Origin: a virus
IMG/VR virus record: IMGVR_UViG_3300046373_000049
Location: 2,460 to 66,459 of that record
Strand: one strand, 5' to 3'
DNA: 64,000 nt
Shown: in pieces, positions 36,901-64,000 of the stretch
Layout: each line of letters opens with the position of its first letter
Position numbering within the stretch: the stretch's first letter is position 1
Notes under the pieces: generated by a model
What the model was told of the DNA's origin: nothing
Seen by the model: the letters and a program-made list of their open reading frames with translations, nothing else
The model's database searches: none
Made by a program: the position numbers and the translations under genes

Positions 36901-37188
36901 GTCGAAGAGTTTTATCGCCAAGCTGTCAAGGTGCGCGAAGCAACGGCTGACATGCAGCACTATAAAAAACTCGGCAATATCGAGAAGGCCCGCGAGATTT
37001 TCGAGGAAGACAAGGAGCTGATTAAGCAATCGCCGCGTTTCAATATGGCAACCACGAGTATCAATAAAATCAATTTACGAATTCAACAAGTACAAGCATC
37101 CAGTAAAATGGATGCCAAGCAGAAACGGGTTGAAGTGGATCGCCTTAGCGCTATGCGAAATAAGATTGCTGAAAGAGTAATGAAGTGA
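30904..37188 (+). CDS. large polyvalent internal virion protein (pyrophosphatase-like, zincin-like and LPD38-like domains)
   Basis: 2094 aa; ENPQGSVRSG..YGYIKGT..DEHKVMLGF; FHEVSH; VHDYFGH; C-terminal PFMNARMQG, EEWDRDSFW, RIPKPFEIG. Confidence 0.85.
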   Translation: MENDKDLGAFASTVPQKQNDLGDFASAVPAPPSPIKRMASDVGLSLARGIVGAPEALIGLADIPSGGAVGKLAEQAGIKTKETKNIIADYYSPEYKAAQEKVNTAEGFVPTVVAAAQNPSTIVGSAVESLPSMVAGGAIGRVARGASAMSPVLAGAIGEGAVSAGQTAEQVRQSTANGLLTPEQAGLAAASGAATGAINLVGGKIAQKLGIADLDTMLAGGAGQAGRAGLARRVAQGAVSEGLLEEAPQSYQEQVAQNLATGQQWNQGAANAAAQGALAGGLMGGGANIPGPITGAANKAAPEQPGASVPIKTMEAAQARANRMTTETGTPFEVTPHPTVGGSFTVTPVEVENGKPGRSDGTGDGKPSGAANAVMDSAVQPANIIADAGAGGRGTGDAGRNQPVVEGSTAGTAQQPDRVSGDPADAGRADLAGNVEAAPLAPPAGPIEAASRLAPQAPVAGAEAAAAPLEAAAAAAPVQVARPDGTIVEATNIGASKVNPADPASLRMATGFDLSAHDAANSPLNERRLSTPAQQTANNAKLGEADFQGLTVKVENPQGSVRSGVAEDKTPWNTLMTEHYGYIKGTKGADAAGVDTFVGPSVDSPKAFVVDQTSADGKFDEHKVMLGFNTLDEAKAAYYDNYQQGWQGGENISETTVDGLKDWLKTGETTQPFSANQTTAPAQEAAPASPAVAQAQAANVVPKELAVQATGTFSDQAAAQTFAATNKLDVEAVPNPKGGFSLAPKVAPETALSRVADDKRINELNKAMESEGVKISVVRNVTPEQRIVQAVADKAFGTRLTYVTDNDVFHGVAYKGDVYVATGEKSPLIPITFHEVSHILQMTDKKLASKLEDFVVQYMKPGLVQSRIDYENSRAPAENQIGLEQGFNETMADIGGAVAVDPNFWRKMAEHDESLFRKVAYKVMQMLTKAIRVAAGSHFDIDRMVSDRAAVQEAIAKAWGEYNSNRDKGVYKGKENGTGSDQKAGGQQTLARKVQEPAGVSGKSELLDAAPGKDNRAIPLRGLPTSVIVDGKAVTFGPFAPAKEAAERYRKAAGITAPVQRDYVKVDPQRARGIAAEFEDMKHDPSDPKVKASYAAMIKETLAQYQEIKKTGLKIELITGADPYGNPRKAIMDVVNNNHLWVYPTTSGFGGTESAGVDITGNPLLAPVDEKIGKHQLVANDVFRIVHDYFGHIKEGVGFRAEGEENAWQQHASMYSDLARPAMTTETRGQNSWVNFGPFAEFNKTANGADTQYAPQKVGLMPEWTATNEKPQFSRTPPDWINQVPGMTPEIAKKVGLWVPEKTLAERFNELKQDLGKKMVQGMVDQFAPIKALDMKAYMQARLSKASDGGLEAMLMYGKLGLDADGAITVSNTGGFIDSMKKLGVEQERFFSWVAGNRAAELKANGKENLFTDTDISALKNLNQGVNADGKNRTALYAEVLKDLNGFSKSILDIAEKSGLIDGNERHKWEKDFYVPFYRVLEDDGKAVGPRNLAGLTNQYAFKKLKGGKENLNDLMQNTVMNWAHLLSASLKNQAATTTLDAAQKLGVAHNVTSSTKGSVFVLKNGKEMHYVVDDPFITDAISSLAFSGMKGTIIDIATKAKRMLSFGVTFGPTYKIRNIIRDQLQAVAANPMSLNVAKNLATGIKYSSKDNPLYAQMLAGGGLFRMGAAYEDNRAQHLKNLVKKLPSGSIVDSTTKLRGVANKAYDAWMELGDRGETITRAAIYSQMMAAGASHLEASYNTRDSMDFGLQGAWPAVRLLTQTVPFMNARMQGLYKLGRAAKENPRRFATVLGATSIATIALMLASRDDEDWKRREEWDRDSFWWFKVGGKAIRIPKPFEIGAMASIAERGLDMILEGMDEKSRDRFAKRLYHIVMDNLSMNPVPQLVKPALDLYANKDPFRLRAIETPGMEKLSKSERIGGSTTGMAVMLGKAGVLSPVQIDYIISGYFGWLGSHIAMAADPVMRPVMGMPEKAERKIDDAFFVGDWVKELPSNQSRYVEEFYRQAVKVREATADMQHYKKLGNIEKAREIFEEDKELIKQSPRFNMATTSINKINLRIQQVQASSKMDAKQKRVEVDRLSAMRNKIAERVMK
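31961..32209 (+). CDS. nested +1-frame gene (82 aa) inside the polyvalent protein gene
   Basis: GAGGT RBS; codons mostly end in G/C while the host frame here ends in A/T. Confidence 0.65.
   Translation: MENQDEAMEQVMENHLVQRTLSWIPLYNPLTSLQMLELVDAGLATPDEISLWSKDQLPEPRNSQIEYLAILLTLDVPTSPVM
33830..34006 (+). CDS. nested +1-frame gene (58 aa) inside the polyvalent protein gene
   Basis: MEQDRIKKLEDSKPLREKFKSQQEFQESLNYWMQHQGKIIALSRSVDSPPPSSSMAKP; A-rich AAAGG leader; same codon-bias switch. Confidence 0.6.
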   Translation: MEQDRIKKLEDSKPLREKFKSQQEFQESLNYWMQHQGKIIALSRSVDSPPPSSSMAKP

Positions 37189-42559: not shown

Positions 42560-43062
42560 TGCTCCTTGTGTTTTTTATTCCCCAGCCAAGCTGGGCGTCT
42601 GTTGTTCGCTTGCTCTTTTGCTGTGGCCCATCGACAATTTTCTGGTGCGTAATTTCCATTACAGTCGATTCTGTCGATACTTAAATCGCCATCGGGAATC
42701 CCCATATCAGCGAGAAAATTTTCAAAGCATTCCCTCCATCGGTCGCACACAGCAATTCCGCGACCGCCCCAATATTTAAACTCAGGATGCTTTTCGTAGT
42801 AGCAGCGATTAAGCATGTTCCTATATATCCTGTAGACGCGAGTACCAGCCATGCCGTGAGTGGTCATTTTTTTCTTATTAATTTCAACCATAAGACAGCC
42901 ACATGAAGCTGTGCGTCCAGACCGAAGATGATCTATGCGAGCGACTGTGCTATGGCCGCATTCACATACGCAATTCCACATCCACTTCCCGCTTTGACGG
43001 TAAGCTTCAGAAACGGCTGTCAGCTTATTGAACTTGACGCCAGCGATGTCTGTCTTTTTCAT
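42556..43062 (-). CDS. HNH homing endonuclease
   Basis: [47 protein letters not shown]; lower GC than its neighbours. Confidence 0.9.
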
Positions 43063-43517
43063 TTTTCAGACCACTTTATATTCAGCTCAGTGCCGAGCGC
43101 ATAGAGCCATTCGACAAAGACAGATGCCAGCTTCAGCGAGAACTTGCGAGACTGCACGCCGAGCATGACGACGCCAGTGCCATCAAACGCTGGGGCCATT
43201 TCGATGCTACCCATACTGGCCCACAGCGGCGCGATGTCAGGGTCTTTGCAAGTGTCGCGCTTGAACTGGTCAATCAGGATGCGCTTCATGTCGTCCGTGT
43301 CCCAGCGCTTCCCGCAATGATCGTATTGCCGCGCAATGTCGCCAATCATCGCATGATATTTTTGCTCTTGATCGCGGCTCTTTTTCGGTAACGGCCTGTC
43401 CAAAATAAAACGGACAGGATTATCCGGGTCTATCGGCGCAGATGAAATTGCTTCGATAGCCCGGTCAATCTGTTCCTGGGAACGGATCATGATCGTCCGG
43501 TCATTGAAGGTAGCCAT
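43059..43517 (-). CDS. ninB: NinB-family recombination protein
   Basis: [34 protein letters not shown]. Confidence 0.8.
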
Positions 43518-43518
43518 G

Positions 43519-43815
43519 TTATTTCAGTGGGCCGCGCAGTTTCTCGATCAGGGATTTCGCTTCGCTGTTCGATTCCAGTAGCAGCTTCAGGTCGCCAGTG
43601 ATGCCCTGATCCGTCAGCGACAGCAGACCGCCGATAAGCAGGATGGCCGCCTGATCGGGGCCAGCCGTGCGCGCAAATTGAACAGTAGCAGCCATGATGA
43701 TGGCCGACCATGCTTCGGCGCGCAGTTCTGGTGGGAACACGGAAACGACGGTCTGGATATGCGCGGTAAGATCGTCGGCGCTTTGTATTCTTCCGCTGAT
43801 AGGAACTTGTGCCAT
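43519..43815 (-). CDS. hypothetical protein
   Basis: ATG at 43815 coupled to the exonuclease stop. Confidence 0.6.
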   Translation of the reverse strand: MAQVPISGRIQSADDLTAHIQTVVSVFPPELRAEAWSAIIMAATVQFARTAGPDQAAILLIGGLLSLTDQGITGDLKLLLESNSEAKSLIEKLRGPLK

Positions 43816-44465
43816 TACATCCCCTTGATTTTTGCAACGGTGGCGGCGACGGTTTCTTCCACTTCCTTGATGAAGACCGAGACAGCATCTTCCATCTTTG
43901 CGATCAGCGCTTCGTCGCGGTACAAGCGCTGCGTGTAGAGCTGCGCATCGTTCGGGCAGCGCGGGTCGAACGATGTGAAGTCCATCCATTCGCGTTCGGT
44001 AATCCACAAGCCAGCCTGGACTTGATAGACATGCTTTTCCGGCATACCTTGCAACCACGTCTGGATGTGGATGGTCGAATCTTTTGGCGACTTATTTTCC
44101 CAGGCGCCGAGGTCGTCGATCATGCCGTCCAGCGACACGCCGACGCCTGGATGCCGGATGTTCTTGATGAAGCCAGCTTCGATGATCGTGTTGCCCGACT
44201 GGACTTCATAGGCCGTGCGTGCGAAGGATTCGCAGTCCTTGCCCCACTGCATAGCGTAGGCATTCACATTGTCCAGCGGGACGCCATTGATGCGTTCCGT
44301 GACCAGTTCCCACAGGTAGTTCTCGCGGGCCTGCAACGGCTTGCCAGTGGTCTTACTGACTTGCATCACATCCAGGATGCGGCTGCCAGTGACGTGCCCG
44401 GCGCGGTCTTGTTTCCACTCGTCCGTGCCCTGAGCGAAAGCGGAGATAATCAGATTGCTATTCAT
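43815..44465 (-). CDS. YqaJ/lambda-exonuclease-family 5'-3' exonuclease
   Basis: QGTDEW..RAGHVTGS, AMQWG..E..AR, SLDG, ENKSP, YQVQAGLW. Confidence 0.9.
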   Translation of the reverse strand: MNSNLIISAFAQGTDEWKQDRAGHVTGSRILDVMQVSKTTGKPLQARENYLWELVTERINGVPLDNVNAYAMQWGKDCESFARTAYEVQSGNTIIEAGFIKNIRHPGVGVSLDGMIDDLGAWENKSPKDSTIHIQTWLQGMPEKHVYQVQAGLWITEREWMDFTSFDPRCPNDAQLYTQRLYRDEALIAKMEDAVSVFIKEVEETVAATVAKIKGM

Positions 44466-45469
44466 TATGGAAGTCCTGTGGTTGAGGGTACGTCGGCAAA
44501 TTCCACATCGCTGACATCAGCATCCGTGGCGATCTTTTTCCAGCGCTCGTGGTCGCCAGCCAGGGCTTGCCGCTGCGCCTTGGTGATGTCCATCCAGGCT
44601 TTCTTGTACACGTCCAGACCCTTCTTCGCTGCGGCTTCCAGCGTGGCCTTGACGGCATTCATTTCCGGCGTGCCAGCGCCAGCTTCTTCAGCGGCTGCGG
44701 CCTGCACCTGACCGGCGATGTCAGCGCCGTTGTCGCGCTTGATACGCTGGCTTCCACTGATGGCATCGACGTTGCCTTCGTGCTCGTTCAAGATGGCTTC
44801 GGCGGCGGCCAGTCGCTCAGTGCGCGGCCAGTTTTTTGAGGCTCGCTTCATCGCTGCCTTCTTTACCATTTCCTCGAACCATTCCTGCCACGGGCCTGAC
44901 TTGGCTTTCGACTTCGACTTGATCTTTTTAATTTCGTCCATGTCCAGGGTTTCGATGCGGTCGATCCCGTTATGCAGTTTGGCCCAAACGTACACGCCGC
45001 GAATTTCTCCGCGCTGTTCGTCATTATCGAACGGGTCAAACTTGTGCGTGGGCGGCGCGTATGGGCCGTTGTACTCGAACTTGTCATTGGCCCGCACGAT
45101 TTCAGCCGCAGCATCCAGGACGCTGCCTGTGTCAGTCGCCAGCTTCTTCAGGCCGATGTAGCTGATGTCCAGGCAGCACAGGCCATCACGTGGCACCAGA
45201 TAGGCCAGCTTCATGGCCGGGTTCAACGTCAGGCCGACAGCCGCCACGTTCGTGATTGCATTGCGGATCGACGCCGTGCTGCACTTTGGCAGGTATTCGG
45301 ACGCGCTGATAATCTGCACAGCGAACTTGCCTTCGCGCTCGAAATGCACAAGGTTATCGATGATGGCAATCTTGTTGAAGTCTTCCTCGACTTCAGCGAC
45401 GATGACTTCCCACTGCGCAGCCTTGGCTTCAGGCGTCTGAGGCTGGCGGTTATTTTGCTGGGCTGCCAT
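44465..45469 (-). CDS. recT: RecT-family ssDNA-annealing recombinase
   Basis: GLTLNPAMKLAYLVPR..LDISYIGL, GPW..WFEEM.KK. Confidence 0.9.
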   Translation of the reverse strand: MAAQQNNRQPQTPEAKAAQWEVIVAEVEEDFNKIAIIDNLVHFEREGKFAVQIISASEYLPKCSTASIRNAITNVAAVGLTLNPAMKLAYLVPRDGLCCLDISYIGLKKLATDTGSVLDAAAEIVRANDKFEYNGPYAPPTHKFDPFDNDEQRGEIRGVYVWAKLHNGIDRIETLDMDEIKKIKSKSKAKSGPWQEWFEEMVKKAAMKRASKNWPRTERLAAAEAILNEHEGNVDAISGSQRIKRDNGADIAGQVQAAAAEEAGAGTPEMNAVKATLEAAAKKGLDVYKKAWMDITKAQRQALAGDHERWKKIATDADVSDVEFADVPSTTGLP

Positions 45470-45902
45470 GCTGGCTCCTTAATTTTTCGTACAGTGCTGC
45501 AAGGGCTTCGCGTGCCTTGCTGACGCTGCCATCGACATTGATGATCCTGCTTTTGTCGCCGGAAATCTCGATCAGCTTTTTCACTGAATGCGAAGAGAAG
45601 CTGCGCATATGCAGGATATAATCCGCACCGATGCAGGCGGCCCTGATCGTATGCTTGTTGCCATCGCACGACATGGTACGCAGATCGAACAAGTCATCGA
45701 ATTCATCATGGATGGCTGTTTCGTGGTAAGCCTTAACCAGCCCAATGACTAATACCTTTTTCGCAAAACTTTCAGCTTGATGAATGCCGACTTGTAATGG
45801 CGACGTTTTCTTGCACGAGCAAAAGCCACTAGAGCTTTTGCAATCCATGAAGCCCTGTGTACACCGCCCGGTCTTTTCCTGTAACTCATGATGATCTTTC
45901 AA
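45450..45902 (-). CDS. hypothetical protein (AT-rich, first gene of the leftward operon)
   Basis: GAGG RBS, TTG start. Confidence 0.5.
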   Translation of the reverse strand: MKDHHELQEKTGRCTQGFMDCKSSSGFCSCKKTSPLQVGIHQAESFAKKVLVIGLVKAYHETAIHDEFDDLFDLRTMSCDGNKHTIRAACIGADYILHMRSFSSHSVKKLIEISGDKSRIINVDGSVSKAREALAALYEKLRSQHGSPAK

Positions 45903-45935
45903 AATTACCTCGTGTTGAGTGGATTTACGCTACGT

Positions 45936-45963
45936 ATTATAAATGGATTAATCTTGAATACAA
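45936..45963 (-). promoter_or_regulatory. leftward sigma70 promoter
   Basis: TTGTAT-16 nt-TATAAT. Confidence 0.65.
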
Positions 45964-45999
45964 GGGAGCGCTTCTATTGTGTGCAGCAGATGCGGTCTG

Positions 46000-46028
46000 T
46001 TGACGCTATGGATCAACGCCTTTATATT
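46000..46028 (+). promoter_or_regulatory. rightward sigma70 promoter (leaderless transcript)
   Basis: TTGACG-17 nt-TATATT; ATG begins 7 nt after the -10 box with no RBS. Confidence 0.7.
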
Positions 46029-46034
46029 GAACGC

Positions 46035-46271
46035 ATGAAAACAGACCTGAGCAAAATCGTGGTGGCTTTGATGCATTCCGGCCTTACGCAGAATCAAATT
46101 GCGCAAGCCGTAGGATGCTCGCAGCCTAATATCGCAATGATCGCCAGTAAAAAGAGCGGCGCTATTCAGCCCACTCTGAAGACGGCGATGGGGCTGATCG
46201 ACCTTGCTGCGAAGCACGGCATCACGCCTACCGGCACGAAGAAGCGTGCCAGCAAGGAGGCATCAGTTTGA
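46035..46271 (+). CDS. Cro-like HTH regulator
   Basis: GLTQNQIAQAVGCSQPNIAMI. Confidence 0.85.
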   Translation: MKTDLSKIVVALMHSGLTQNQIAQAVGCSQPNIAMIASKKSGAIQPTLKTAMGLIDLAAKHGITPTGTKKRASKEASV

Positions 46272-46711
46272 ACATGAAACGGACTGGCTTCAGCACGACC
46301 ACGAAGCGCATGAAACAAGGCGCATTTCTCAAGGGGAAGGTCGTGGAAAAAAATCCACTAAAACCTGACAAGCGCCCGAAGAAGATGAAAACGAAGCAGC
46401 TCCCAAAGACCGCAGAGGATGTGGCCTTTTGGGATCGGCTCGCCAAGGAAGTGGGATGCGTGGCCTGCCTGAAGGATGGAAACTTTAACCCTCACGTCAG
46501 CATCCACCACATCGACGGACGCACGAAACCCGGCTGCCATAGCCTTGTGCTTCCGCTGTGCGGCCCCCATCATCAGCAGGACGACACTGATCCTGCTGGC
46601 CGGGTGGCAGTCCACCCTTACAAGGCCCGCTTCGAGCGGAAGTACGGAACCCAGGAAGAATTGCTGGCTCAATGCCACGCATTCCTTGCACTCGAATTAC
46701 CATTCATCTAA
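46268..46711 (+). CDS. Ref-like recombination-enhancement HNH nuclease
   Basis: GCVAC..HHIDGRTKPGCH..LPLC..HHQ..VHPYKARFE..YGT. Confidence 0.8.
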   Translation: MNMKRTGFSTTTKRMKQGAFLKGKVVEKNPLKPDKRPKKMKTKQLPKTAEDVAFWDRLAKEVGCVACLKDGNFNPHVSIHHIDGRTKPGCHSLVLPLCGPHHQQDDTDPAGRVAVHPYKARFERKYGTQEELLAQCHAFLALELPFI

Positions 46712-54810: not shown

Positions 54811-55227
54811 ATGCCTACCGCTACTCCAATTTTTCCGCAGACCGTCAAGAACTTCGTGGCGCAGGTTTTGCCAGCAGATGCTTCCGGCAAGAAAACCCTC
54901 GTCACTGGCGCCGCCAATGGCACGAAGGTTGAAGCCATCCTCGTGACATCGACCGACACAACCGCCCGCGACCTTCAACTGATTATGACGGTCAGCGCTG
55001 TCGATTACATCCTGGCCACGGTTTCGATCCCGATTACGGCTGGCTTCATCAACAGCGTGCCAGCAGTGGACATCATGCGCAATGCGCAATGGCCGGGCTT
55101 GGCCTACGATGCGAACGGCAACAAGGTGCTGTATGTCGCCAATGGCGCCGTCCTGAGCGTGAAAACCCTGACAACCGTTACCGCTGCCAAAGAAGTCGAT
55201 GTCTTTGGCTACGGCGCGGACTTCTGA
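54811..55227 (+). CDS. beta-rich structural protein
   Basis: TPIFPQT..TGAANG..YGADF. Confidence 0.65.
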   Translation: MPTATPIFPQTVKNFVAQVLPADASGKKTLVTGAANGTKVEAILVTSTDTTARDLQLIMTVSAVDYILATVSIPITAGFINSVPAVDIMRNAQWPGLAYDANGNKVLYVANGAVLSVKTLTTVTAAKEVDVFGYGADF

Positions 55228-55229
55228 TT

Positions 55230-56261
55230 ATGTTTGGCGAAATCGGACAGCGCCTGAAGGGCGGGCTGCAATATCTACTCGTCACGTTCCTGGGCACGAC
55301 GGTTAATTTCCGTGTGCATCACGGCCAGGACTTGACGATCCAGGCGGGCGACGCCATTGCGGCTGGCACGGGCAGCACGGGCCGCACCTTGACAATCAAG
55401 GGCGGCCAAGCCACGTCAGCGAATGGCGTCAATACTGCAACAGGCGGCGCCGTGGCGATTGTTGGCGGCGATCCTCCTGCGCTGTTTGGCTCCAATGGCG
55501 GCGGCCCTGGCGGCGCAGTCAATATCACAGGCGGCGCTGGTCTTGGTGGCGCTGTCGGGAATGGCGGCACCGTTACTATCACGGGCGGCGCTGGCACGGG
55601 CGGCAACAACGCTGGCAACGTTGTTATTACGAACGGCGCGGGCGGCTCGCCCACCATCCAGATCATCGGCGCGGCAGGTACTGCTGGCGCTATCACGATA
55701 AAGTCAGGCTCCAGCGGCGGCGCGGCTGGCGGCGCGCTGACCATTCAATCCGGCGACGGCACCAGCTTGAACGCAGGCGGCGCCATGATCCTGCGCCCAG
55801 GCGACTCCAGCAATGAAGTCGGCCAGCATCTACAGCTTCAAGGCGCAGCAGCAAGCGGTGGCAACCGCCTGGGCGGCCATGTGAAATTGCAAGGCGGCGC
55901 CGCTTCTGGCACTGGCGGATCGGGATGCGTCATTACGTTGACGCCGACAGCGGATCAGGCTTACTCGAAGCAGGTTCCCACGACTGGCTTTTCCATCACC
56001 ATCGCCAACAACATCCGCACGCTGATCCTCGACCCGGCTGGCACGCTGGCGACTGGAACCATCACGATGCCAGCGACGGCGACTGATGGGCAGAGCGTCC
56101 GCATCACTTCGACGCAGATCATCACGGCGCTTACCGTGTCGGCAAATGCAGGCCAGTCCATCACGAACGCGCCAACAGCATTCAACCCGAACCTGACCGG
56201 CGCGCAAGGCTATGAATTCATCTATGTCGCTTCCAATACGACGTGGTATCGCTTGCAATAA
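55230..56261 (+). CDS. glycine-rich fibre or receptor-binding protein
   Basis: repeated GGxVxIxGG turns; C-terminal domain PAGTLATGTITMP..WYRL. Confidence 0.7.
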   Translation: MFGEIGQRLKGGLQYLLVTFLGTTVNFRVHHGQDLTIQAGDAIAAGTGSTGRTLTIKGGQATSANGVNTATGGAVAIVGGDPPALFGSNGGGPGGAVNITGGAGLGGAVGNGGTVTITGGAGTGGNNAGNVVITNGAGGSPTIQIIGAAGTAGAITIKSGSSGGAAGGALTIQSGDGTSLNAGGAMILRPGDSSNEVGQHLQLQGAAASGGNRLGGHVKLQGGAASGTGGSGCVITLTPTADQAYSKQVPTTGFSITIANNIRTLILDPAGTLATGTITMPATATDGQSVRITSTQIITALTVSANAGQSITNAPTAFNPNLTGAQGYEFIYVASNTTWYRLQ

Positions 56262-56276
56262 CAACCGGGGCATATC

Positions 56277-57032
56277 ATGGCGCTTGGCTTCGGCTCAATC
56301 TCAGAAGTAGCGATTGTTTCCCAGCGTGATGCTGGGGCTTCTGGCGTTACCTCGACAGGTGCGACATCGCAGGCGCAGACGGCAGCCGCATCAGCAGCCA
56401 TCAGCGCTGACGCAACAGCATCGACCAGCCAAGCGCAGACCGCAGCAGCTTCGGCAGCCATCAGCGTATCGGCTGCCACTTCAACGTCGCAAGCGCAAAG
56501 CACGGCTGCCACGGCAGACATCGCCACGTCGGCAAGCGCAACGACATCCCAGGCACAAACGACGGAAGCCACCGCAGCCATCAGCGTAGCAGCAGGCGTC
56601 ACAACGTCGCAGGCGCAATCTGTTGCCGCAGTAGCCGACGCATCCTTTAGTGCTACTGTAGCGACATCGCAGGCGCAGACCGCTGCGGCTACTGGCGGAA
56701 TCAGCACTTCAGCAATAGTTGCCACAAGCCAAGCCCAATCTAACGCGATTACAGGGGCCATAGAGGCGTCCGCAGCCATCCAGGTAGCGCAGGCGCAGAC
56801 AACCTCCGCAAACGCCAGCGTGGCATCATCCGGCGCGGCAGCGACGTATCAGGCGCAAACTTGCAGCGCCGTAGGCGATGTCCAGACGGTTGTTGGCACT
56901 GGCGCCTTATCGTGCAGCATCAGGGTATCCCCAGCCGTGGCGCTCCAGGCTCGCACCTGGAAGGCGACCACGATGGAATTTTCTTTACGTGCTGCCGTCA
57001 AGGGGCGAACCGATGTGAGGCCCAATCCATGA
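56277..57032 (+). CDS. Ala/Ser/Thr-rich protein with nine 20-aa repeats
   Basis: MALGFGSISE N-terminus; (T/S)SQAQ(T/S) core every 20 residues. Confidence 0.75.
   Translation: MALGFGSISEVAIVSQRDAGASGVTSTGATSQAQTAAASAAISADATASTSQAQTAAASAAISVSAATSTSQAQSTAATADIATSASATTSQAQTTEATAAISVAAGVTTSQAQSVAAVADASFSATVATSQAQTAAATGGISTSAIVATSQAQSNAITGAIEASAAIQVAQAQTTSANASVASSGAAATYQAQTCSAVGDVQTVVGTGALSCSIRVSPAVALQARTWKATTMEFSLRAAVKGRTDVRPNP
56350..56890 (+). repeat. nine degenerate 60-bp coding repeats
   Basis: CA(G/A)GC(G/A/C)CA(G/A) core recurring every 60 nt. Confidence 0.75.
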
Positions 57033-57355
57033 GCAACATTCAAACTTTATATATCAACAACGACAACGTGCTGGAAGTGTCGGCGCTGAAGGACGACGTG
57101 ACCGGCGAATTCTTGAACGATGCCACGGTAATGGTCACGCTGACGGATGCGACCACTGGCGAAGAAGTGGATGGTGCGACGTGGCCTGTGGCGATGGATT
57201 ACCTGGATGAATCGAATGGGGTTTTTCGTTGCTCGCTGACGCATGAGCTTGACCTACTGGCGGGACGGCAATACAACGCCGTTGTTGTTGCGGATGGTGG
57301 GGTGGGGCTGTACGCGAGCTTCACGGTGCTTTGTGTCGCCCGCGCACGGGTTTAA
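57029..57355 (+). CDS. small Ig-like structural or anchor protein
   Basis: DN.LEV..L.D..TGEF...ATV.VTL.D..G..WP..M.Y. Confidence 0.65.
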   Translation: MSNIQTLYINNDNVLEVSALKDDVTGEFLNDATVMVTLTDATTGEEVDGATWPVAMDYLDESNGVFRCSLTHELDLLAGRQYNAVVVADGGVGLYASFTVLCVARARV

Positions 57356-57564
57356 GGGAATCTGCGGAAGTCGGGATGCTGGTTCGTCTTTATGAGGAAC
57401 AGCTCCCAGTCGGCTGGCGGCATACTCGTGAGGCCAGTCTCCCACTCGCTCCAGCGCTGTAGGCTGTTGCGGTAAAGCAGATCGGCTGCCTCTTCCTGAG
57501 TCAGCCCGGCGACCTTCCTGGCCGCCTTGATCTGGTCTGTTGTCGGACTAAGTTCATGTCTCAA
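57352..57564 (-). CDS. XRE-family HTH protein
   Basis: AAGGAGG RBS, TTG start; IKAARKVAGLTQEEAA..WSEWETG..MP..WELF. Confidence 0.8.
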   Translation of the reverse strand: MRHELSPTTDQIKAARKVAGLTQEEAADLLYRNSLQRWSEWETGLTSMPPADWELFLIKTNQHPDFRRFP

Positions 57565-57575
57565 AACATCCCTCC

Positions 57576-57959
57576 TTAAACGTAAAGACGCGGTTTGAAA
57601 ATGCCGCCGACCTCGACAGCCAGAACGTCGAACCATTCGAGCGCCTTGTGTACCGCGTGCAGGGCGCTGTCGGCAGTGGTGACGAACTTGTGGGCCACGA
57701 AGCCGTGCTGGATCGAGTAGACCCCAGGCGCCACTTCCTTGACCGTCAGCCAGCCGTAGATCGTCGGCATCTTCGTTTCCTTGCTGGCCTTGTGCTGCTG
57801 GCGCGGCCATGCCTTGTGCGACGTGTAATCGTGGAAGGCCAGCGCCCATATCGAGTAGCCGGTCAGGATCAGCAGCGGATGGGCGACCAGATCATGCAGG
57901 ATGGCCCAGCCGCGTTTCTCTTCGGCGTTTGCACACGCCTCGCGTGGATCAGTTTTCAT
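57576..57959 (-). CDS. hypothetical protein
   Basis: WAILHDLVAHPL..FHDYTS..AWP. Confidence 0.65.
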   Translation of the reverse strand: MKTDPREACANAEEKRGWAILHDLVAHPLLILTGYSIWALAFHDYTSHKAWPRQQHKASKETKMPTIYGWLTVKEVAPGVYSIQHGFVAHKFVTTADSALHAVHKALEWFDVLAVEVGGIFKPRLYV

Positions 57960-58261
57960 TACTGCCACACTGGATGGGATTCTTGATTGACGCTCAGGCC
58001 GACGATGACGCCTGCATCGTCCAGGCTGATCGTCACGCCGTTATCTTGCAAGCCGTCCAGGAAGCCTTCCACGAACAGGTGATGCTCTTGCGTGTGGGCG
58101 GCGTAACCGGCTGCGATGGCGGCGGCCTTGATGTCCGTGAAAATCTGGCCCAGGCGCACCGTCGTGACGGCGTGCAGCCCGCGCTGGTAGGCGACCCCAC
58201 TGGCCTGCTGTTCCAGGATGGTGGCAGTCATTTGCTGAAGCTCTTGCGTTTGGTTTTTCAT
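57959..58261 (-). CDS. hypothetical protein
   Basis: AAGGAG RBS. Confidence 0.65.
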   Translation of the reverse strand: MKNQTQELQQMTATILEQQASGVAYQRGLHAVTTVRLGQIFTDIKAAAIAAGYAAHTQEHHLFVEGFLDGLQDNGVTISLDDAGVIVGLSVNQESHPVWQ

Positions 58262-58334
58262 GATGGTGCTCCTTCAGTGGGGTTATCGGGAAAGGCTCCC
58301 GTGTATGCGCCCGAAGACGCATACGCTGGCCCTT

Positions 58335-58946
58335 TCAGTCGGCATGGCGGGATGCCCACGCTGGCGTGTTGTAGTACTTGTCGTTCGCATCTGGACGAAG
58401 GCCCATGATGACGCCCGTGAAGCGACCATCATCGAAATTGACCACGGCGCGGTCTTTGTCATGGCCAATATAGAGCTGGTTGAATTTGCGCTGTCCGGTC
58501 AACATGATGTTGGCCTTTTTGAACGCCTCCAGATATGCCACTTCAAGCTGCGCAGGCGTATTGCTTACCGGCTTATTCGGCATCACCTTGGCGTAGTCGG
58601 GGAACGTCGCGTCTATCATGTTGAAGGTCTTCGTCACCCTCGTATAGGCGTCATGCATCGACCATAAATTTCCTGGGCCGTCGTGCGACAGGATTATGGT
58701 ATGGGAGCCATTCTTTGTCGGCTTGAAAAATTCAATCACGTCACGCGGGATGATGTACTGGCCCGGCATGAATTGACCAGTGCCTGAAAGTCGAAGCACG
58801 CCCATGATGTGCCCGTTCGTTGCGACGAGCCGACTTTCCGTCTTGCCGATTTCCAGGAGCACGCCGTTCAAGTAGTAGCGGATGTCCTGCTTCGCCGCGA
58901 GTAACAGCATGGCGGCGAGGTCGCGCTTTTTGATTTCGTGGCTCAT
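58335..58946 (-). CDS. truncated DNA polymerase III beta-clamp (DnaN)-like protein
   Basis: AAKQDIRYYLNGVLLE, LVATNGHIM, IIPR, FPDY.KV, GVIMGLR; only 203 aa. Confidence 0.8.
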   Translation of the reverse strand: MSHEIKKRDLAAMLLLAAKQDIRYYLNGVLLEIGKTESRLVATNGHIMGVLRLSGTGQFMPGQYIIPRDVIEFFKPTKNGSHTIILSHDGPGNLWSMHDAYTRVTKTFNMIDATFPDYAKVMPNKPVSNTPAQLEVAYLEAFKKANIMLTGQRKFNQLYIGHDKDRAVVNFDDGRFTGVIMGLRPDANDKYYNTPAWASRHAD

Positions 58947-59236
58947 GATGTTTTGCCCCCAGCTTGCTTGATGGCGCCGATGGCTTGGCTTGGAGCTTCG
59001 TTCATTTCGCGGATGGTTTCGGCCTGGAGTGCGCTGTCACGCAGGTTCACGTCCTTCATCATCATGCGATGCAGTTTGAGCATGCGCTCCAGCGCGGCCA
59101 GCAGGCCCGGCGCGGCTTCGTGTACGGCGCGCAGCTTGAGCTGCTGTTCGTACCAGTCGTCCGTGATGACGATGTGCTTCGGTGGCGGCACAAAGTCGAT
59201 GGTGACGATGGGGGATGGTTTTCTGTGGTCACTCAT
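58943..59236 (-). CDS. hypothetical phage protein
   Basis: AAPGLLAAL..AIKQA.G motif. Confidence 0.65.
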   Translation of the reverse strand: MSDHRKPSPIVTIDFVPPPKHIVITDDWYEQQLKLRAVHEAAPGLLAALERMLKLHRMMMKDVNLRDSALQAETIREMNEAPSQAIGAIKQAGGKTS

Positions 59237-59531
59237 GATGCGCTCCCTGTTTTGTGAAGCGTGGCACGAAGAAGTCTTTCAGCTTTCCCGTGTCGCGGTC
59301 GATGTGCCGGATGATCCCGCCAACATCGTGTGAAAGATTGAAGTTATCCGCTTCCAGCAGCTCTTTCAAGCGCAGCGGATTGCCGTGATTATGGACGGCA
59401 GTGATGTCCATTTCGACATCCAGTTGATCCAGCTCGACGCCATTAGCTCCATACAGATCAACTGCGCGTTTGGCGATTTCCATAATCAGCTTGCGGTCTT
59501 CCTTGCTGACCTTCCAGTTTAAGACTGCCAT
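59229..59531 (-). CDS. conserved phage protein
   Basis: MDITAVH..PLRL..LL.AD.FN..HDV.GI.RH.DR.TG.L..F.PRF; AAGGAG RBS. Confidence 0.75.
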   Translation of the reverse strand: MAVLNWKVSKEDRKLIMEIAKRAVDLYGANGVELDQLDVEMDITAVHNHGNPLRLKELLEADNFNLSHDVGGIIRHIDRDTGKLKDFFVPRFTKQGAHHE

Positions 59532-59599
59532 GATATTTCTCCTTCGTTGCGGGTCAAAGCGCCCGTAACAGCCCACGGGTATGGGCTGTGGCTGGAGCT

Positions 59600-60376
59600 T
59601 TAGTTGCCAAAGATAGCGCGCAAAACGTCTTGCAGTTCATCCTCATGCGTGCGTGGCTTGCCGTGCCGTGGATCGGCAATACGGGCAGCCGCTTCTGCCT
59701 TGAGGATTTCCGCTGGCGACAGTTGGCCGCGCTTCAGCGTGAATTTGAACGTCTTCAGATCAACGTCGATCTTCAGCGTGTCTCCAGGCTTCGGGAAATC
59801 CCGGCGCGCATCTTTGATAACGGCATCGACAAGCTTGCCGAAGAGCGTGTCCAGGCCAATATGCCCGAGCTTTTTGTATCGACGTGCTGCCACGCGGTAG
59901 CCGATGCGAATCCAGCCACGCACGTCTTCCTTCACGCTGCGAAACTTTTCAACGTTAGTTACCAACGTTCTTTGTTCGCCGGTTTTGTGCATCGGCGCAG
60001 TGTTGGCTGCATTTATTTCAGTGTCGCTCAATAAGGCGCTCAACATTCTTTCGGCACCAGCATCAAGCGGTTTATTTGCCAGCCCATGTGGGGGCTTCGG
60101 CACCTTGTAATTTTGCATCGCAAGGAACACGTCCAAGTCGCTGGCGCTGGCTTCGTACATGTTTTCCGGGTTCCCGTAAAAGCGCCCGTATAAGGTCACG
60201 CCGAAGGCGCGCAGCTCACCATCGAATGCTGACCTGTCGTCCAGGTGCTCCAGCACGTCATGTGCGACGACGTGGGCCAAGCCTGGATCGAAGTTAGGAC
60301 AGCAGTTAGGCTTCCAGCCGTCGATGGCTTTCGTCACCGTCCAGTCGAAGGTGCGCGAGCGGATGTGTGATGTCAT
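59600..60376 (-). CDS. hypothetical protein with an AHDVLEH metal-binding-like motif
   Basis: AAGGAG RBS before the ATG at 60376. Confidence 0.7.
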   Translation of the reverse strand: MTSHIRSRTFDWTVTKAIDGWKPNCCPNFDPGLAHVVAHDVLEHLDDRSAFDGELRAFGVTLYGRFYGNPENMYEASASDLDVFLAMQNYKVPKPPHGLANKPLDAGAERMLSALLSDTEINAANTAPMHKTGEQRTLVTNVEKFRSVKEDVRGWIRIGYRVAARRYKKLGHIGLDTLFGKLVDAVIKDARRDFPKPGDTLKIDVDLKTFKFTLKRGQLSPAEILKAEAAARIADPRHGKPRTHEDELQDVLRAIFGN

Positions 60377-60446
60377 GATTACTCTCCTTATGTTGACCGG
60401 GACAATCCCCGAAGATGCCCCGCACGCGAGGCATCTGCTGGCGCTG

Positions 60447-60641
60447 TCAGGTGCGTATCTGGAACTGCGCAGGGCAGTATTCATTCCAGATGCGGCCACT
60501 GGGATCGAGGCGCTTGCGCGCTTCGGCCAGAGCTTCTTGCTCACGCTTGCCGCGACGGTATTCACCGTCATCATCAGCGTGGGCGAAATACCAGTCGAAA
60601 CCCTTGAGCCGGTTTCGGTACTGGTCGAGGTCTTCGATCAT
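60447..60641 (-). CDS. small phage protein
   Basis: L.GFDWYF.HADD..Y..G. Confidence 0.7.
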   Translation of the reverse strand: MIEDLDQYRNRLKGFDWYFAHADDDGEYRRGKREQEALAEARKRLDPSGRIWNEYCPAQFQIRT

Positions 60642-60910
60642 GCGGGTACTCCTTCAGTTTCACGGAAGCGTTTGCGGGATACCGACAGCGCAATCGGCAC
60701 GCTGTCGGCTGGGTTTGCAACGATGTCCTCCGGGTCTTCCCACTGGACGGGCACCGTGGCAATGTAGTGCGACGGCGGGTCGATGTCTGCCATCGCCTGT
60801 TCGCGTGAGTCGTACAGATCGCCAGCGTGGCGGTCTAAGGTATTGGGTTTGCCTTCGCGGTGAAACCATCCACTGCGATAAATGTTCATGTAGCAAATTT
60901 TGGTAGCCAT
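60638..60910 (-). CDS. hypothetical protein
   Basis: AAGGAG RBS; YMNIY..Y.SRE.A. Confidence 0.65.
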   Translation of the reverse strand: MATKICYMNIYRSGWFHREGKPNTLDRHAGDLYDSREQAMADIDPPSHYIATVPVQWEDPEDIVANPADSVPIALSVSRKRFRETEGVPA

Positions 60911-60994
60911 TGGAATTCTCCTTGGTGGGGTCATGGGAGGGTATCGGGACAATCCCCGTGATAGCGCCCACTCAAGGCGCTATCGCTGGTGCTG

Positions 60995-61456
60995 TCAGGA
61001 AAGCGGGAAGATCAGTGCGTCGATGCTGTACTGGCCTGTGCCAGCCAGGACGATGACGGCCAGCAGGAACAGGTACAGCACTTCGGGCAGGTAGAGCCAA
61101 TCAGCTACCCAGTCGCCGCGATTGATCGGATGGTAGGCCGCCACCTTAGCCTTCGATTCGCAGCAGCAGGCGACGACGCAGATAATCATCAGCACACCAG
61201 CATTGAAGGCCGACAAGAAGCCCAGCGCCAGCAGCAAGCCGGATGCGAATTCCCATCCAGGCACCCACCACTGCATGAAGCCCAGCGCCGGGATGTGATT
61301 CTTGCGCAGGTTCGCCGTCAGCGAGTTATGGCGCCCGACGTTGAACAGTTTATTGAAGCCCGATATGGCGAAGAACGTGCCGACACAGAGGCGGGTCAGC
61401 GCCAGTGCAGCATCGGGGGCAAGCAGGCCGTGGGCCGCGACATTGAGGATATCCAT
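60995..61456 (-). CDS. DoxX-family membrane protein
   Basis: RLCVG.FF..SG.NKL, EF..GLLL.LG, G.G.YSID. Confidence 0.85.
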   Translation of the reverse strand: MDILNVAAHGLLAPDAALALTRLCVGTFFAISGFNKLFNVGRHNSLTANLRKNHIPALGFMQWWVPGWEFASGLLLALGFLSAFNAGVLMIICVVACCCESKAKVAAYHPINRGDWVADWLYLPEVLYLFLLAVIVLAGTGQYSIDALIFPLS

Positions 61457-61457
61457 G

Positions 61458-61586
61458 TCAGCCGTCCGAATCGTTGAAGACCATGACGAGGGCCACGAAG
61501 ATGACGTAAGCGGCGGCGACTTTCATCAGGAAGCTGTCCGTTTTTTTACGGGCTGCCTGACATACTTGCGGGATGAATTGCTTCAT
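61458..61586 (-). CDS. 42-aa single-TM peptide
   Basis: GGAG RBS; MKQFIPQ..AAAYVIFVALVMVF. Confidence 0.55.
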   Translation of the reverse strand: MKQFIPQVCQAARKKTDSFLMKVAAAYVIFVALVMVFNDSDG

Positions 61587-61662
61587 GGTTTTCTCCGGTA
61601 AAGGGCAAAGCGCCCGACACTGCGCAGCACCGTGGGGGAGGCGCTGCGCAGTAGCTGGAGCT

Positions 61663-61815
61663 TTAGAAAGCAAGCAGCCAAAGCATATTGGTCAGGAAGG
61701 CGACATGGCCGATATGCTCAGGGAAGAAATGCGTCAATGTAAGGCCAGTTGCCACGATGGCCTTCAGGATCAGCACACGCTTAAAGTGTACTGAGCGGAG
61801 GTATGCTTGCAGCAT
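61663..61815 (-). CDS. 50-aa membrane peptide
   Basis: MLQAYLRSVHFKRVLILKAIVATGLTLTHFFPEHIGHVAFLTNMLWLLAF; TGATG overlap with the upstream gene. Confidence 0.6.
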   Translation of the reverse strand: MLQAYLRSVHFKRVLILKAIVATGLTLTHFFPEHIGHVAFLTNMLWLLAF

Positions 61816-62033
61816 CACGCCTCCGGGGCACCGAGGTGCATGAAGAAGTCCAGCATGATGACAACCAGCGCGGCGCCAGCGGCGTAGCGGTAGTAACCAT
61901 GGGCTTCGACCGAAACCATCCCCAGGTACAGGGAGTGGAACAAGTGCTCGCCTTTATGGCAAACGACGTGCGCAACAGCGTGCGCTTTGTGGCGCAGCCG
62001 GGCCACAGTTGCATGGAAAGATGGATGGGGCAT
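61815..62033 (-). CDS. His-rich small membrane protein
   Basis: GAGG RBS; 10 His in 72 aa; hydrophobic C-terminus. Confidence 0.65.
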   Translation of the reverse strand: MPHPSFHATVARLRHKAHAVAHVVCHKGEHLFHSLYLGMVSVEAHGYYRYAAGAALVVIMLDFFMHLGAPEA

Positions 62034-62039
62034 AACTAC

Positions 62040-62248
62040 CTCTTGAAAGTGGGGATTGGAAGGGGGCGGATGCCCAAGGCTGATGCGTCATTCTGTGATG
62101 GCTGATGCTGGCCATTACCGGGATGTGTCGCTATACAAGGCTTCCATCGGCTCCTTTTGGGATGTGCAGTGGCTGGCGTTAATCTGTCCAGTCTTACCCG
62201 GTCGGCATCATGTCCGCCGTTCGATGTTAAGCCGTGTATAGCGACGCG
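62040..62248 (-). ncRNA. candidate structured ncRNA
   Basis: approximately 25-bp closing stem (62125-62150 with 62221-62247) around small hairpins; ORF-free. Confidence 0.55.
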
Positions 62249-62293
62249 AAAAGCGCCCGTAACAGCGTCCAGGCGGGCGCTGTGGCTGGAGCT

Positions 62294-62476
62294 TTATGTG
62301 ATGTTGCCGACACTGACCAGTGGGATGCGGATCGAGTTAAAGATCAGCCGGGCCACATCACTGTCAAGACCGGCGTATTGCACCACGTCATTCAAGACGA
62401 TGACGTGCTGTTGCCCTTCGCTCAGTTCGCCGCTGGGCAATGCTTCGTATGGAAGCAGTTCGTTGTGGCTGTTCAT
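62294..62476 (-). CDS. hypothetical protein
   Basis: its stop is at the base of hairpin copy 6. Confidence 0.55.
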   Translation of the reverse strand: MNSHNELLPYEALPSGELSEGQQHVIVLNDVVQYAGLDSDVARLIFNSIRIPLVSVGNIT

Positions 62477-62477
62477 G

Positions 62478-62681
62478 TCAGCCGCCTGCTGCGAGTTTCA
62501 GGCTCAGGGCGAAGGCTTCGGCGGCTTCGTGCGTCTTGAAGCCTTCGATGACTTGGCCGTTAGGCTTGGTGATGCCGTGCTTCATCACGTCGCCCTGCTG
62601 GTAGGCATACACCATGTAGGGGAAGATCACGCCACGGTTCAATTCTTCTTTCGTGGTGTGGCTGTTGATGGTCGTTTCCAT
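62478..62681 (-). CDS. hypothetical protein
   Basis: AGGAG RBS. Confidence 0.6.
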   Translation of the reverse strand: METTINSHTTKEELNRGVIFPYMVYAYQQGDVMKHGITKPNGQVIEGFKTHEAAEAFALSLKLAAGG

Positions 62682-62691
62682 GATAAGGCTC

Positions 62692-62832
62692 CTATTTTTT
62701 GAAACAGTGATTGCGGCGATGTGCTCGCCAGAAGGTGTAGACCGCTCCCTTGGCCGCCACGGGCAGCATCCCCCATACAGCGAAGATGATGTGGTGCTCG
62801 ACTTCGGCGATCTTGATTCTGATCGCTTTCAT
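62692..62832 (-). CDS. 46-aa protein
   Basis: GGAG RBS; MKAIRIKIAEVEHHIIFAVWGMLPVAAKGAVYTFWRAHRRNHCFKK. Confidence 0.5.
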   Translation of the reverse strand: MKAIRIKIAEVEHHIIFAVWGMLPVAAKGAVYTFWRAHRRNHCFKK

Positions 62833-62891
62833 GATTCTCTCCATTCGGGATAAGACCCGTGGATGCCTCGCACGCGGGGCATCGGCTGGTG

Positions 62892-63167
62892 CTATCGGAG
62901 GTATGCGGGAAGGCTGGAAGCGCCTTCGGTATCGACGATGTTCTCTGCGACCAGCTCACCGCGCAGCTCGAATTCGCCGCGCTTCACGCGGTCAGCGATG
63001 TAGGCCGACGACAGCACGCCATCAGGGAAGATTTCGCGCAGATGGCTGATATTGCCTTCGGTGGCGATGCCCTGATACTTGTACAGGTCGCCTTCATACA
63101 TCGGGATGATCGAGTAGTAGTGCCCGATGGGGTTCCAGTGGTTTGGTGGGGGAGTCCAGGATGACAT
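62892..63167 (-). CDS. first gene of the early leftward operon, hypothetical
   Basis: AAGGAG RBS before the ATG at 63167. Confidence 0.6.
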   Translation of the reverse strand: MSSWTPPPNHWNPIGHYYSIIPMYEGDLYKYQGIATEGNISHLREIFPDGVLSSAYIADRVKRGEFELRGELVAENIVDTEGASSLPAYLR

Positions 63168-63420
63168 GATATTTCTCCTTGTAGGGCACAGCGCCCGGCG
63201 CTGCCCCCTGTCACGAGGCAGCAACTGAAGCTGTATGTATGTGGTGTTTCGGTAGTTCGCGTGTTTCACATCGGTGCTTGACCCAGGGATCAACCTGGAA
63301 CCGCAGGCCAGCGTCGTGTGGCCCGTTCGTGCTTTCTTTGTCGTATCTAGCGAGGCGGTGATGTAGGGCCGGGGCCATTTCTTTCTGCTGGAAGCAACTC
63401 GTTCGCTAGAACTTATTGCC

Positions 63421-63449
63421 AGCATAGGTTACGGAATACGGAAGCGCAA
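63421..63449 (-). promoter_or_regulatory. sigma70 promoter for the early leftward operon
   Basis: TTGCGC-17 nt-TATGCT. Confidence 0.7.
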
Positions 63450-63457
63450 GGACTAAT

Positions 63458-63487
63458 TTCACGGATACCGTAACAAAGTCGTATATA
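63458..63487 (+). promoter_or_regulatory. possible divergent rightward promoter
   Basis: TTCACG-18 nt-TATATA; GTTACGG/CCGTAAC inverted repeat spans both promoters. Confidence 0.35.
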
Positions 63488-63489
63488 CA

Positions 63490-64000
63490 ACCTGTTGTGT
63501 TGCAGCCACGCAGCAGAAGAGCTGGAAATATTCCTGTGGCGTCCATGTAGAATGGAATCCATCGAACAAGAGCCAGCCGGAACTGGCGCCGAGGCAGCCA
63601 CCAGATAGGTGGGCCAAACTTGATCGATCATGTCCAGACGCGGTTTGGCTCCGTGTAGTGTGCTAAAAAAGCTGCCTAATGCTAGGGACTGAGCCGGGTA
63701 GAACCGGCAAGAATTGCAGCAGGAAAGAACGACGAAGGCCCATTATGCGTGACGCACGAGGTATTGCTTATGTAGACCTGTAGCTATGAACGAAAATGCC
63801 GGGTTCGTGCCGAGGACGGAAGGCACATGCCGTGAATTACGCCGGATGGAAAGAATCCGGCACCAACATGCAGCACGTACCGGAAGGCGGACACAATCGA
63901 GTAAGCAAGGGCCGGGAGTCCCTTCCGAAAATCTGGAAACGAGCCTTTATGGCAGGGAGGAATTAGACTCCCCGCTTGTTGCCTCTCACGAGGCGGCAAG
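63490..64000 (+). ncRNA. candidate large multi-domain structured ncRNA (over 500 nt)
   Basis: about a dozen hairpins in two closed domains; purine-rich loops; no credible ORF. Confidence 0.65.

Follow-up and report, generated by a model that had tools for sequence, protein, structure and literature searches.

The early messenger RNA (mRNA) of phage T7 is processed by ribonuclease III (RNase III) at the hairpins R0.3 to R1.3, and the sites of the Bacillus phage SP82 are similar. The modular theory of phage evolution places linker or boundary sequences at gene borders, and relaxed recombination by Red/Rad52-like recombinases is reportedly a subject of study. The present analysis is devoted to an RNA hairpin element related to both topics. 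Eight copies of it are distributed along one operon in a viral DNA stretch of 64,000 nucleotides (positions 2,460 to 66,459 of the IMG/VR record IMGVR_UViG_3300046373_000049), which was analysed over its whole length and is referred to as the window. The element probably shapes the mRNA and acts as a gene-shuffling joint. It resembles the T7 sites in that repeated intercistronic hairpins of about two helical turns display central non-Watson-Crick positions and no U tract, and in that the expected products, here predicted, bear a 3' hairpin. It differs from them in the absence of any sequence or Rfam relationship, in a core made of a single A-G mismatch instead of the asymmetric internal loop of T7, in carrying a stop codon and a conserved CCCG tail, and in its occurrence in unrelated phages; the window phage, furthermore, displays no RNA polymerase of its own among the about 60 proteins scanned. 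Like the linkers of the modular theory, the element is a short conserved gene-border sequence that could guide exchange between unrelated phages; unlike them, it is a defined, structured and covarying unit with a likely RNA function of its own.

The eight elements are 59-73 nt long, are all located on the minus strand between 63239 and 58282 and share one layout. The lower stem comprises 5-6 bp, its 5' arm carrying the stop codon of the upstream gene, and is followed by one unpaired base per side and by a YC:GG step in which the CC of CCAG is paired with the GG of CGGG. Above this step come the A-G mismatch, a G:C pair and one position that is mismatched in 8 of the 8 window copies, then an upper stem of 8-14 bp closed by a loop of 4-8 nt. 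The lower stem is followed on its 3' side by CCC(G), a ribosome-binding site (RBS) and a start codon. A sequence-only reading of this DNA had described an internal loop with fixed bases; because the CC of CCAG pairs with the GG of CGGG, the fixed positions are retained as fixed mismatches and the loop itself becomes a near-continuous helix. The operon and the copies are given below, with scores from R1, a covariance model built from the eight window copies, and with fold z-scores.

57352-63167, minus strand: co-directional operon of 17 called genes, from heuristic gene calls and family scans
63178-63239, minus strand: copy c1, located in the first gene's leader and without an upstream open reading frame; R1 65.7 bits; fold of -25.4 kcal/mol, z -2.0
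62840-62900, minus strand: copy c2, with the TAG stop of gene 62892-63167 inside the lower stem; R1 60.4 bits
62240-62300, minus strand: copy c3, with the TAA stop of gene 62294-62476 inside the lower stem; R1 59.7 bits
61597-61669, minus strand: copy c4, with the TAA stop of gene 61663-61815 inside the lower stem; R1 60.6 bits; longest upper stem (14 bp), fold of -37.4 kcal/mol, z -5.8
60939-61000, minus strand: copy c5, with the TGA stop of the DoxX-family gene 60995-61456 inside the lower stem; R1 63.6 bits, second model R2 69.8 bits; z -5.0
60392-60452, minus strand: copy c6, with the TGA stop of gene 60447-60641 inside the lower stem; R1 66.6 bits
59546-59606, minus strand: copy c7, with the TAA stop of gene 59600-60376 inside the lower stem; R1 60.0 bits; z -4.0
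58282-58340, minus strand: copy c8, with the TGA stop of the clamp-like gene 58335-58946 inside the lower stem; R1 57.4 bits; z -4.7; loop C(UUCG)G

The core of c1 is a variant (TTCAG...CCGGG) with a U-G step in place of C:G. An RBS and the ATG at 62832 come after c2. Copy c3 ends in four U and is followed by a spacer of 260 nt, its CCCG tail being pushed away by an insert of 122 nt. The lower stem and tail of c5 belong to a type common to many other phages, and c6 has the same lower-stem type. Copies c3 and c7, c2 and c6, and c5 and c8 form related pairs, and five lower-stem types occur in all. The eight minus-strand copies announced by the sequence-only reading, whose three examples correspond to c8, c7 and c5, are thus all present. 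A stop codon at the foot of the stem in seven of eight was correctly seen, the exception being c1, which has no upstream gene, and so were an RBS and ATG within 28 nt in seven of eight (all save c3 with its long spacer) and the lack of a U tract, none of the eight elements being terminator-like. Its statement that the stems change completely while staying paired is to be retained for the pairing only, in view of the related pairs and the five lower-stem types.

The RNA fold is under selection, and this selection operates on the sense strand. The same architecture is obtained when each of the eight window copies is folded alone, with minimum free energies of -18.5 to -37.4 kcal/mol and z-scores of -1.8 to -5.8 (200 dinucleotide shuffles per copy). 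Standard pairs occupy 92.0% of the 112 pair cells of the eight-copy alignment, compared with 73.9 +/- 3.1% in shuffles (0 of 500 as high) and 33-48% when the partners are slid, and both sides are changed at 6 of the 14 pairs. An enlarged set of 40 distinct copies from 27 records displays 89.3% pairing against 72.1 +/- 1.2% in shuffles (again 0 of 500 as high) and 31-43% in the slid controls, with 8 of 14 pairs altered on both sides. Closer comparisons are permitted by the IMG/VR contig G001 (64,959 bp; loci L004 and L008), which is collinear with the window at 75-93% identity and carries nine copies in the same array. Locus L004 is about 85% identical to the window and contains seven orthologous, non-identical hairpins, in which four stem pairs (two in c6 and a single one each in c2 and c5) are altered on both sides and stayed or became paired. 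Only two changes break a pair, both where the upper stem begins, at a pair that is frequently open, and one loop became C(UUCG)G; loops of this type are found in c8 and at L004:6457. Across the scored copies, the reverse strand obtains at most 20.5 bits versus 48-67 bits for the sense strand. The stem cells contain 53 G-U versus 26 A-C combinations, 22 of the latter at one habitually open position, and this excess of G-U cells indicates that the fold acts on the sense strand. Moreover, the 5' arm of the lower stem, which lies outside the last search pattern, covaries with the one position of the 3' arm that was left free (n=60: A-T 44, T-A 5, C-G 3, G-C 1). Covariation, compensatory changes between orthologues, the preference for G-U over A-C and the UUCG loops together bear out the selected fold postulated earlier.

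The element is specific in the window and belongs to no Rfam family. Model R1 gives the window copies 57-67 bits by construction; with filters off and both strands of the 64-kb window searched, the next best matches are reverse-strand echoes of at most 18.4 bits and the best unrelated match reaches 12.8 bits. The 66,459-bp record as a whole contains no ninth copy. Used by itself, the loose motif CCAGC...CGGG was not discriminating (57 seen, 34 expected) and was abandoned. Of the searches that the sequence-only reading had advised, the one for phage genomes with a covariance model produced many further copies, and the one in Rfam produced no family: Rfam 15 contains no sense-strand match at E 10 or better, the two matches at this threshold both being on the opposite strand with 10-18 bits against gathering cutoffs of 40-64. 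No description of the element was found in the literature on conserved intergenic or intercistronic phage hairpins or on the conserved 12-mer. The heptaloop GUGACAG is found repeatedly, in 10 of 40 and in 6 of 60 distinct copies (c1 and loci L069, L088, L091 and L095 among them), and a CGUG loop in 5 of 40; a common ancestry or a second feature serving recognition may lie behind these recurrences.

Within the operon, the distribution of the copies follows the gene borders closely. All seven operon spacers of at least 59 nt contain a copy, and the nine junctions that overlap or measure at most 11 nt contain none, so that the elements separate eight tightly coupled groups of one to three genes, the last group having three; the earlier proposal that they mark the limits of gene groups is thereby confirmed. 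The genes of the operon all point the same way, and neither a promoter nor a terminator consensus is observed between them. Promoter-like sites are as frequent as expected (4 versus 4.0 +/- 2.2) and none is usable at an element; the promoter-like site 59557-59530, which overlaps the c7 tail and the start codon, was taken as chance. None of the nine terminator-like sites called in 55000-64000 falls on an element.

In order to find the element elsewhere, patterns derived from the lower-stem types were used first, followed by models R1 and R2. About 100 distinct copies were obtained in at least 77 records apart from the window's own, including at least 73 other IMG/VR contigs, the cultured Alcaligenes phage CASP1 and an Alcaligenes prophage. 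The first pattern sets yielded bona fide copies in 26 further IMG/VR contigs, and the last pattern scan yielded copies in at least 47 of 78 loci, with at least 69 hits of which at least 60 are distinct. The placement relative to the reading frames is retained. In the first set of model hits, a stop codon is located at model offset 0-7 in 44 of 53 and a Shine-Dalgarno (SD)-like motif with a start codon 7-19 nt past the model end in 45 of 53; in the second set (at least 60 distinct hits), 60 of 60 have a stop triplet within their first 9 nt, and in 53 of 60 the model end is followed by a start codon at a distance of 8-17 nt. All 14 whole records examined have their copies clustered on one strand. 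Records other than the window and G001 contain one to five copies, the eight and nine of these two being the largest arrays seen.

The carriers are diverse, with GC contents of 47-66%. Structural genes are common to the window phage and two of the carriers, G003 and G005, with amino-acid identities of 45-79%; a third, G007, shares only the helicase, the primase and one small open reading frame, and no window protein matches CASP1 (tblastn, E 1e-4 or better). In CASP1 (OR960973.1, 11203-11267, minus strand; loci L104 and L105), a single copy is situated between two hypothetical genes, CASP1_00024 and CASP1_00023, where it forms a GC-rich island within a genome of 47% GC. Bacterial chromosomes are almost devoid of the element: a pattern scan of 185,579 species genomes returned three stretches, one of them in Alcaligenes phenolicus DSM 16503, which was also the only match among 151 genomes of the Alcaligenes family (35 candidates scored per genome). 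This near absence indicates a phage-borne element and not a host repeat; a repeat of the REP or BIME type was likewise discarded, as the many chromosomal copies that define such repeats are lacking. In other phages the element follows primase, exonuclease-region, terminase and ORFan genes, and is therefore a general intercistronic element. The early-operon code put forward by the sequence-only reading has to be given up for this reason, and a kinship with T7 finds no support in the about 60 proteins scanned, among which no phage RNA polymerase occurs.

Several candidates were rejected during these searches. Loci L001-L003 and L006 of the first pattern contain an ordinary U-tract terminator. 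Locus L005 is alike by eye and was left uncounted, R1 giving 23 bits and R2 nothing. Behind the clamp-like gene of L014/L015, one hit of 20 bits is devoid of the core, and the 46 loci (582,630 bases) around distant clamp-like homologues contain no element. Loci without a model hit (17 of 42 for the second pattern and 31 of 78 among the last-pattern matches listed) were taken as chance.

The element coincides with the joints of mosaic genomes. Between the window phage and G001, 19 alignment breaks are counted genome-wide, three of them in the array, and all three of these adjoin elements. The first is an extra gene with its hairpin in G001, joined within the 3' half and RBS region of c1; the second is an insert of 122 nt in the window, between the c3 lower stem and the CCCG tail, which is missing from G001; the third is an extra 65-codon gene in G001 directly behind c5. 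The second corresponds to the following feature:

62123-62245, minus strand: non-coding 122-nt insert separating the lower stem of c3 from its CCCGGTAAT tail; joint at 62121-62248

This insert, perhaps what is left of a lost cassette, includes an SD-like motif and a frame of 10 codons. No RNA run was listed as containing the region; in three DNA runs, some contigs have joints or loose ends that coincide with the array indels, and one weakly supported contig seems to skip gene 59229-59531 directly behind c7. Over 57300-64000, DNA run X1 contains two strains, that of the window with a depth of about 40-50 and a G001-like one with about 140-185; in this dominant strain the extra cassette behind c1 is present and the insert 62123-62245 is absent.

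The same coincidence is apparent across the wider family. When the neighbouring genes of 53 hits are clustered, 28 clusters are obtained for the downstream side and 30 for the upstream side. Among the 229 inter-contig similarity pairs that overlap an element, which are not independent of each other, 193 share the element alone; in 14, all of the primase family, the upstream flank is shared and the similarity stops at most 25 nt after the element, and in 6 the shared downstream flank starts at most 25 nt from the 5' edge (-2, -3 and -10 in the rows listed). An example of this last kind is given by L076 and L081, which are 99.9% identical over 760 nt downstream and unrelated upstream. The junction points vary, from -2/-3 at the 5' edge, through the 3' half, to +4 to +16 past the 3' end, and this variation fits homologous exchange over a short shared patch instead of a site-specific crossover. 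Gene-content changes in relatives do fall at the elements, both in the G001 indels and in the inter-contig pairs, as the check suggested with the earlier reading had anticipated.

A comparable situation is described for T4-type phages in two reports (PMC2839356, PMC4122927): there, the promoter-early stem-loops (PeSLs) combine a sigma70-like promoter with a terminator stem-loop and form intergenic cassettes between the ORFans of plastic regions, the indels and replacements at these places being attributed to homologous recombination. PeSLs and the present element have in common that small conserved intergenic cassettes lie among ORFans and that indels or replacements between relatives occur at the element. 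They differ in that the stems covary here and are conserved in PeSLs, and in the hosts and phage lineages concerned. The element is not a PeSL, because no promoter fits and no U tract is present, both of which are defining parts.

The preferred reading is that of a structured mRNA element cut by a host enzyme of the RNase III type, which would also supply a short homology for cassette exchange; it is given a probability of about 0.45. According to this reading, the lower stem, the YC:GG step, the A-G mismatch, the G:C pair and the upper stem would stack into a quasi-continuous helix of about two turns. A host RNase III-type endonuclease would cleave the helix close to its mismatched core and would probably sever a single strand. 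With the cut on the 3' side of the core, the upstream message would retain a protective 3' hairpin, and the freed 3' arm and CCCG tail would refold into a small 5'-terminal hairpin just before the RBS of the next group. The whole unit of about 60-75 nt, made of stop codon, hairpin, tail and RBS, would serve in addition as the homology patch where phage recombinases join cassettes, a double role that is suggested by its being common to unrelated phages of one host group. RecT, the YqaJ exonuclease and NinB, all encoded by the phage, are the candidates for this recombination.

We infer the cleavage, the enzyme, the role of the 5' mini-hairpin and the recombination pathway, the RNase III processing being deduced from the geometry of the hairpin. 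Per side, 10-11 nt separate the core from the terminal loop in 26 of 40 distinct copies; a separation of 10-13 nt is seen in 55 of 59, and 11 model positions lie below the core, as in a hairpin of two A-form turns (about 20-22 bp). The ideal RNase III substrate measures 22 bp, mismatches or loops at the target permit single-strand cleavage, and the 3' hairpins left by the enzyme stabilise the RNA, according to the review PMC3867540. The fragment extending from CGGG to the start codon displays a 5'-terminal hairpin of 4-5 bp in 34 of 37 cases. A 5'-terminal stem-loop is known to protect bacterial mRNA. Folds of short contexts were also computed for the accessibility of the SD motif; their answers were unstable and were not used. 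The absence of any protein shared with CASP1 and the 47-66% GC range of the carriers suggest a host factor rather than a phage factor.

A number of observations weigh against the RNase III reading or reduce the force of its evidence. The upper stem varies in length: some copies form a second mode at 13, and lengths of 15 and 23 occur as outliers, which weakens a strict ruler. Covariation cannot test the mini-hairpin, because its bases are nearly invariant. The alignments used for the pair counts were fitted to the covariance model. The A-G mismatch is invariant in 40 of 40 distinct copies and CC directly follows the lower stem in 38-39 of 40, and the copies found by model alone keep CCAG, CGGG and CCCG too; in most copies outside the window, the search patterns account for part of this invariance. 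No fixed sequence is required by RNase III, and the CAG/CGG core suits a sequence-specific protein at least equally well. As regards recombination, 16 of the 19 breaks counted in the comparison with G001 fall outside the array and need no element, three array indels out of three at elements have a chance of about 0.1 if indels are restricted to gene borders, and about 5-6 distinct junction events underlie the 229 pairs.

A broader proposal would make of the element a portable and horizontally exchanged intercistronic adaptor, comprising the stop codon, the processing hairpin, the 5'-protective mini-hairpin and the RBS, by means of which unrelated phages of a single host group could insert ORFan cassettes into any operon through short-homology recombination. 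It is advanced here as a tentative and rather doubtful extension.

Stable folds, a fixed place between stop codon and RBS, and copies restricted to the spacers between translationally coupled groups would also be displayed by a passive hairpin that is never cleaved. Such a structure would block 3' exonucleases, insulate the cistrons and free the next RBS, ribosomes arriving at the stop codon opening the hairpin. This explanation is held unlikely, as a passive hairpin has no need for an invariant A-G/CAG-CGG core, for a CCCG tail or for a near-constant distance from core to loop. The same core leads to the next explanation, slightly less probable still, namely that the element is recognised in a sequence-specific manner by an RNA-binding protein distinct from RNase III and encoded by the host or by the phage. 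It might then work as a translational operator, as a place where an antitermination factor or a chaperone is loaded, or as the substrate of an endoribonuclease dedicated to it. An invariant mismatched core set in variable paired stems is typical of hairpins recognised by proteins, and the element is restricted to phages that apparently belong to one host group, as judged from CASP1 and the Alcaligenes prophage. The window phage and CASP1 nevertheless share no protein, and no RNA-binding or nuclease family candidate was identified among the about 60 proteins scanned; a protein of the host may be involved.

A site acting at the DNA level is improbable. It could be a recombination site that folds as a single-strand hairpin, comparable to attC, to REP/RAYT or to an IS200-type end, and is moved by a dedicated recombinase, or else a priming signal. 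Indels made of a gene plus a hairpin look like cassettes, the element is often the sole similarity between contigs, and G-T wobbles form in DNA. Integron attC sites have in common with the element an imperfect hairpin in which the unpaired bases are fixed and the stem sequence is free, and one such hairpin follows each promoterless cassette, always in one orientation. The differences are that no integrase was found, that the R'/R'' core sequences are absent (the core being CCAG/CGGG) and that the junction positions vary. No integrase, tyrosine recombinase, HUH or RAYT enzyme occurs among the proteins scanned, junctions at differing points replace a single crossover, and the element is nearly absent from host chromosomes. 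All copies examined, furthermore, are in the sense orientation at a fixed spacing from stop and start codons, and UUCG loops occur; this spacing, unlike the situation of attC, points to RNA.

Factor-dependent or U-less terminators or attenuators metering the expression of the operon are very improbable. GC-rich hairpins lying directly after stop codons, and the four U that end c3, would agree with them, and an intrinsic terminator was rejected since the U tract following a GC-rich stem is absent. The terminator scan picked out none of the eight elements, promoter-like sites are no more frequent than expected, a promoter would not fit into the 7-19 nt that separate the element from the start codon, and eight terminators in series would silence the distal genes. 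A small self-cleaving ribozyme cutting the operon RNA is equally hard to credit: ribozymes are common in phage metagenomes and about 12 conserved nucleotides in a small fold would suit one, but no sense-strand Rfam match was obtained and the near-continuous helix has neither junction nor pseudoknot.

The phage has no close cultured relative, a megablast of the region against cultured phages giving no match, and a single-protein locus search found nothing. Its scanned proteins include a terminase, a portal, a major head protein, a helicase, a primase, RecT, the YqaJ exonuclease, NinB and a Ref-like nuclease. The recombination module is located at 43059-46711, with NinB, YqaJ and RecT on the minus strand and the Ref-like, RecA-dependent nuclease on the plus strand. 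The operon genes are mostly small ORFans, except for the DoxX-family protein, the sliding-clamp-like protein and a weak helix-turn-helix protein at the end. The DoxX-family membrane protein (60995-61456, minus strand; Pfam 1.2e-11) has a homologue two genes upstream of an element in L007. Gene 58335-58946 (minus strand) bears the phrog_3007 label 'RusA-like resolvase', and its homologues in GenBank phages are annotated as DNA polymerase III beta or clamp; the PHROG name looks doubtful. On the plus strand, the adjacent large genes 24953-27271 and 27280-29412 both belong to phrog_10969 (E 2e-93 and 5e-96) and look like a tandem duplication of a structural gene. A virion protein of 2094 aa (30904-37188, plus strand) contains lysozyme- or endolysin-like residues 494-680 and a DarB-like similarity, and its N-terminal part weakly resembles the non-polymerase N-terminus of the N4-type virion RNA polymerases. 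The 116-bp 'direct terminal repeat' (63885-64000 with the first 116 bases of the record) is an assembly overlap, and G001 is permuted at another place, so that the genome ends are uninformative on early entry.

The analysis would add to the known phage RNAs a widespread structured motif absent from Rfam. At the level of sequence, it supports the long-standing view that unrelated phages exchange gene modules under the guidance of short conserved linkers between genes. A cultured phage-host pair with a single copy exists, consisting of Alcaligenes faecalis and phage CASP1, which makes the element directly testable. If the processing model is true, the unit would be a compact natural operon insulator. 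If the adaptor reading is true, it would be the physical linker long postulated for phage mosaicism, and a counterpart of attC that is free of a recombinase of its own and functional as RNA.

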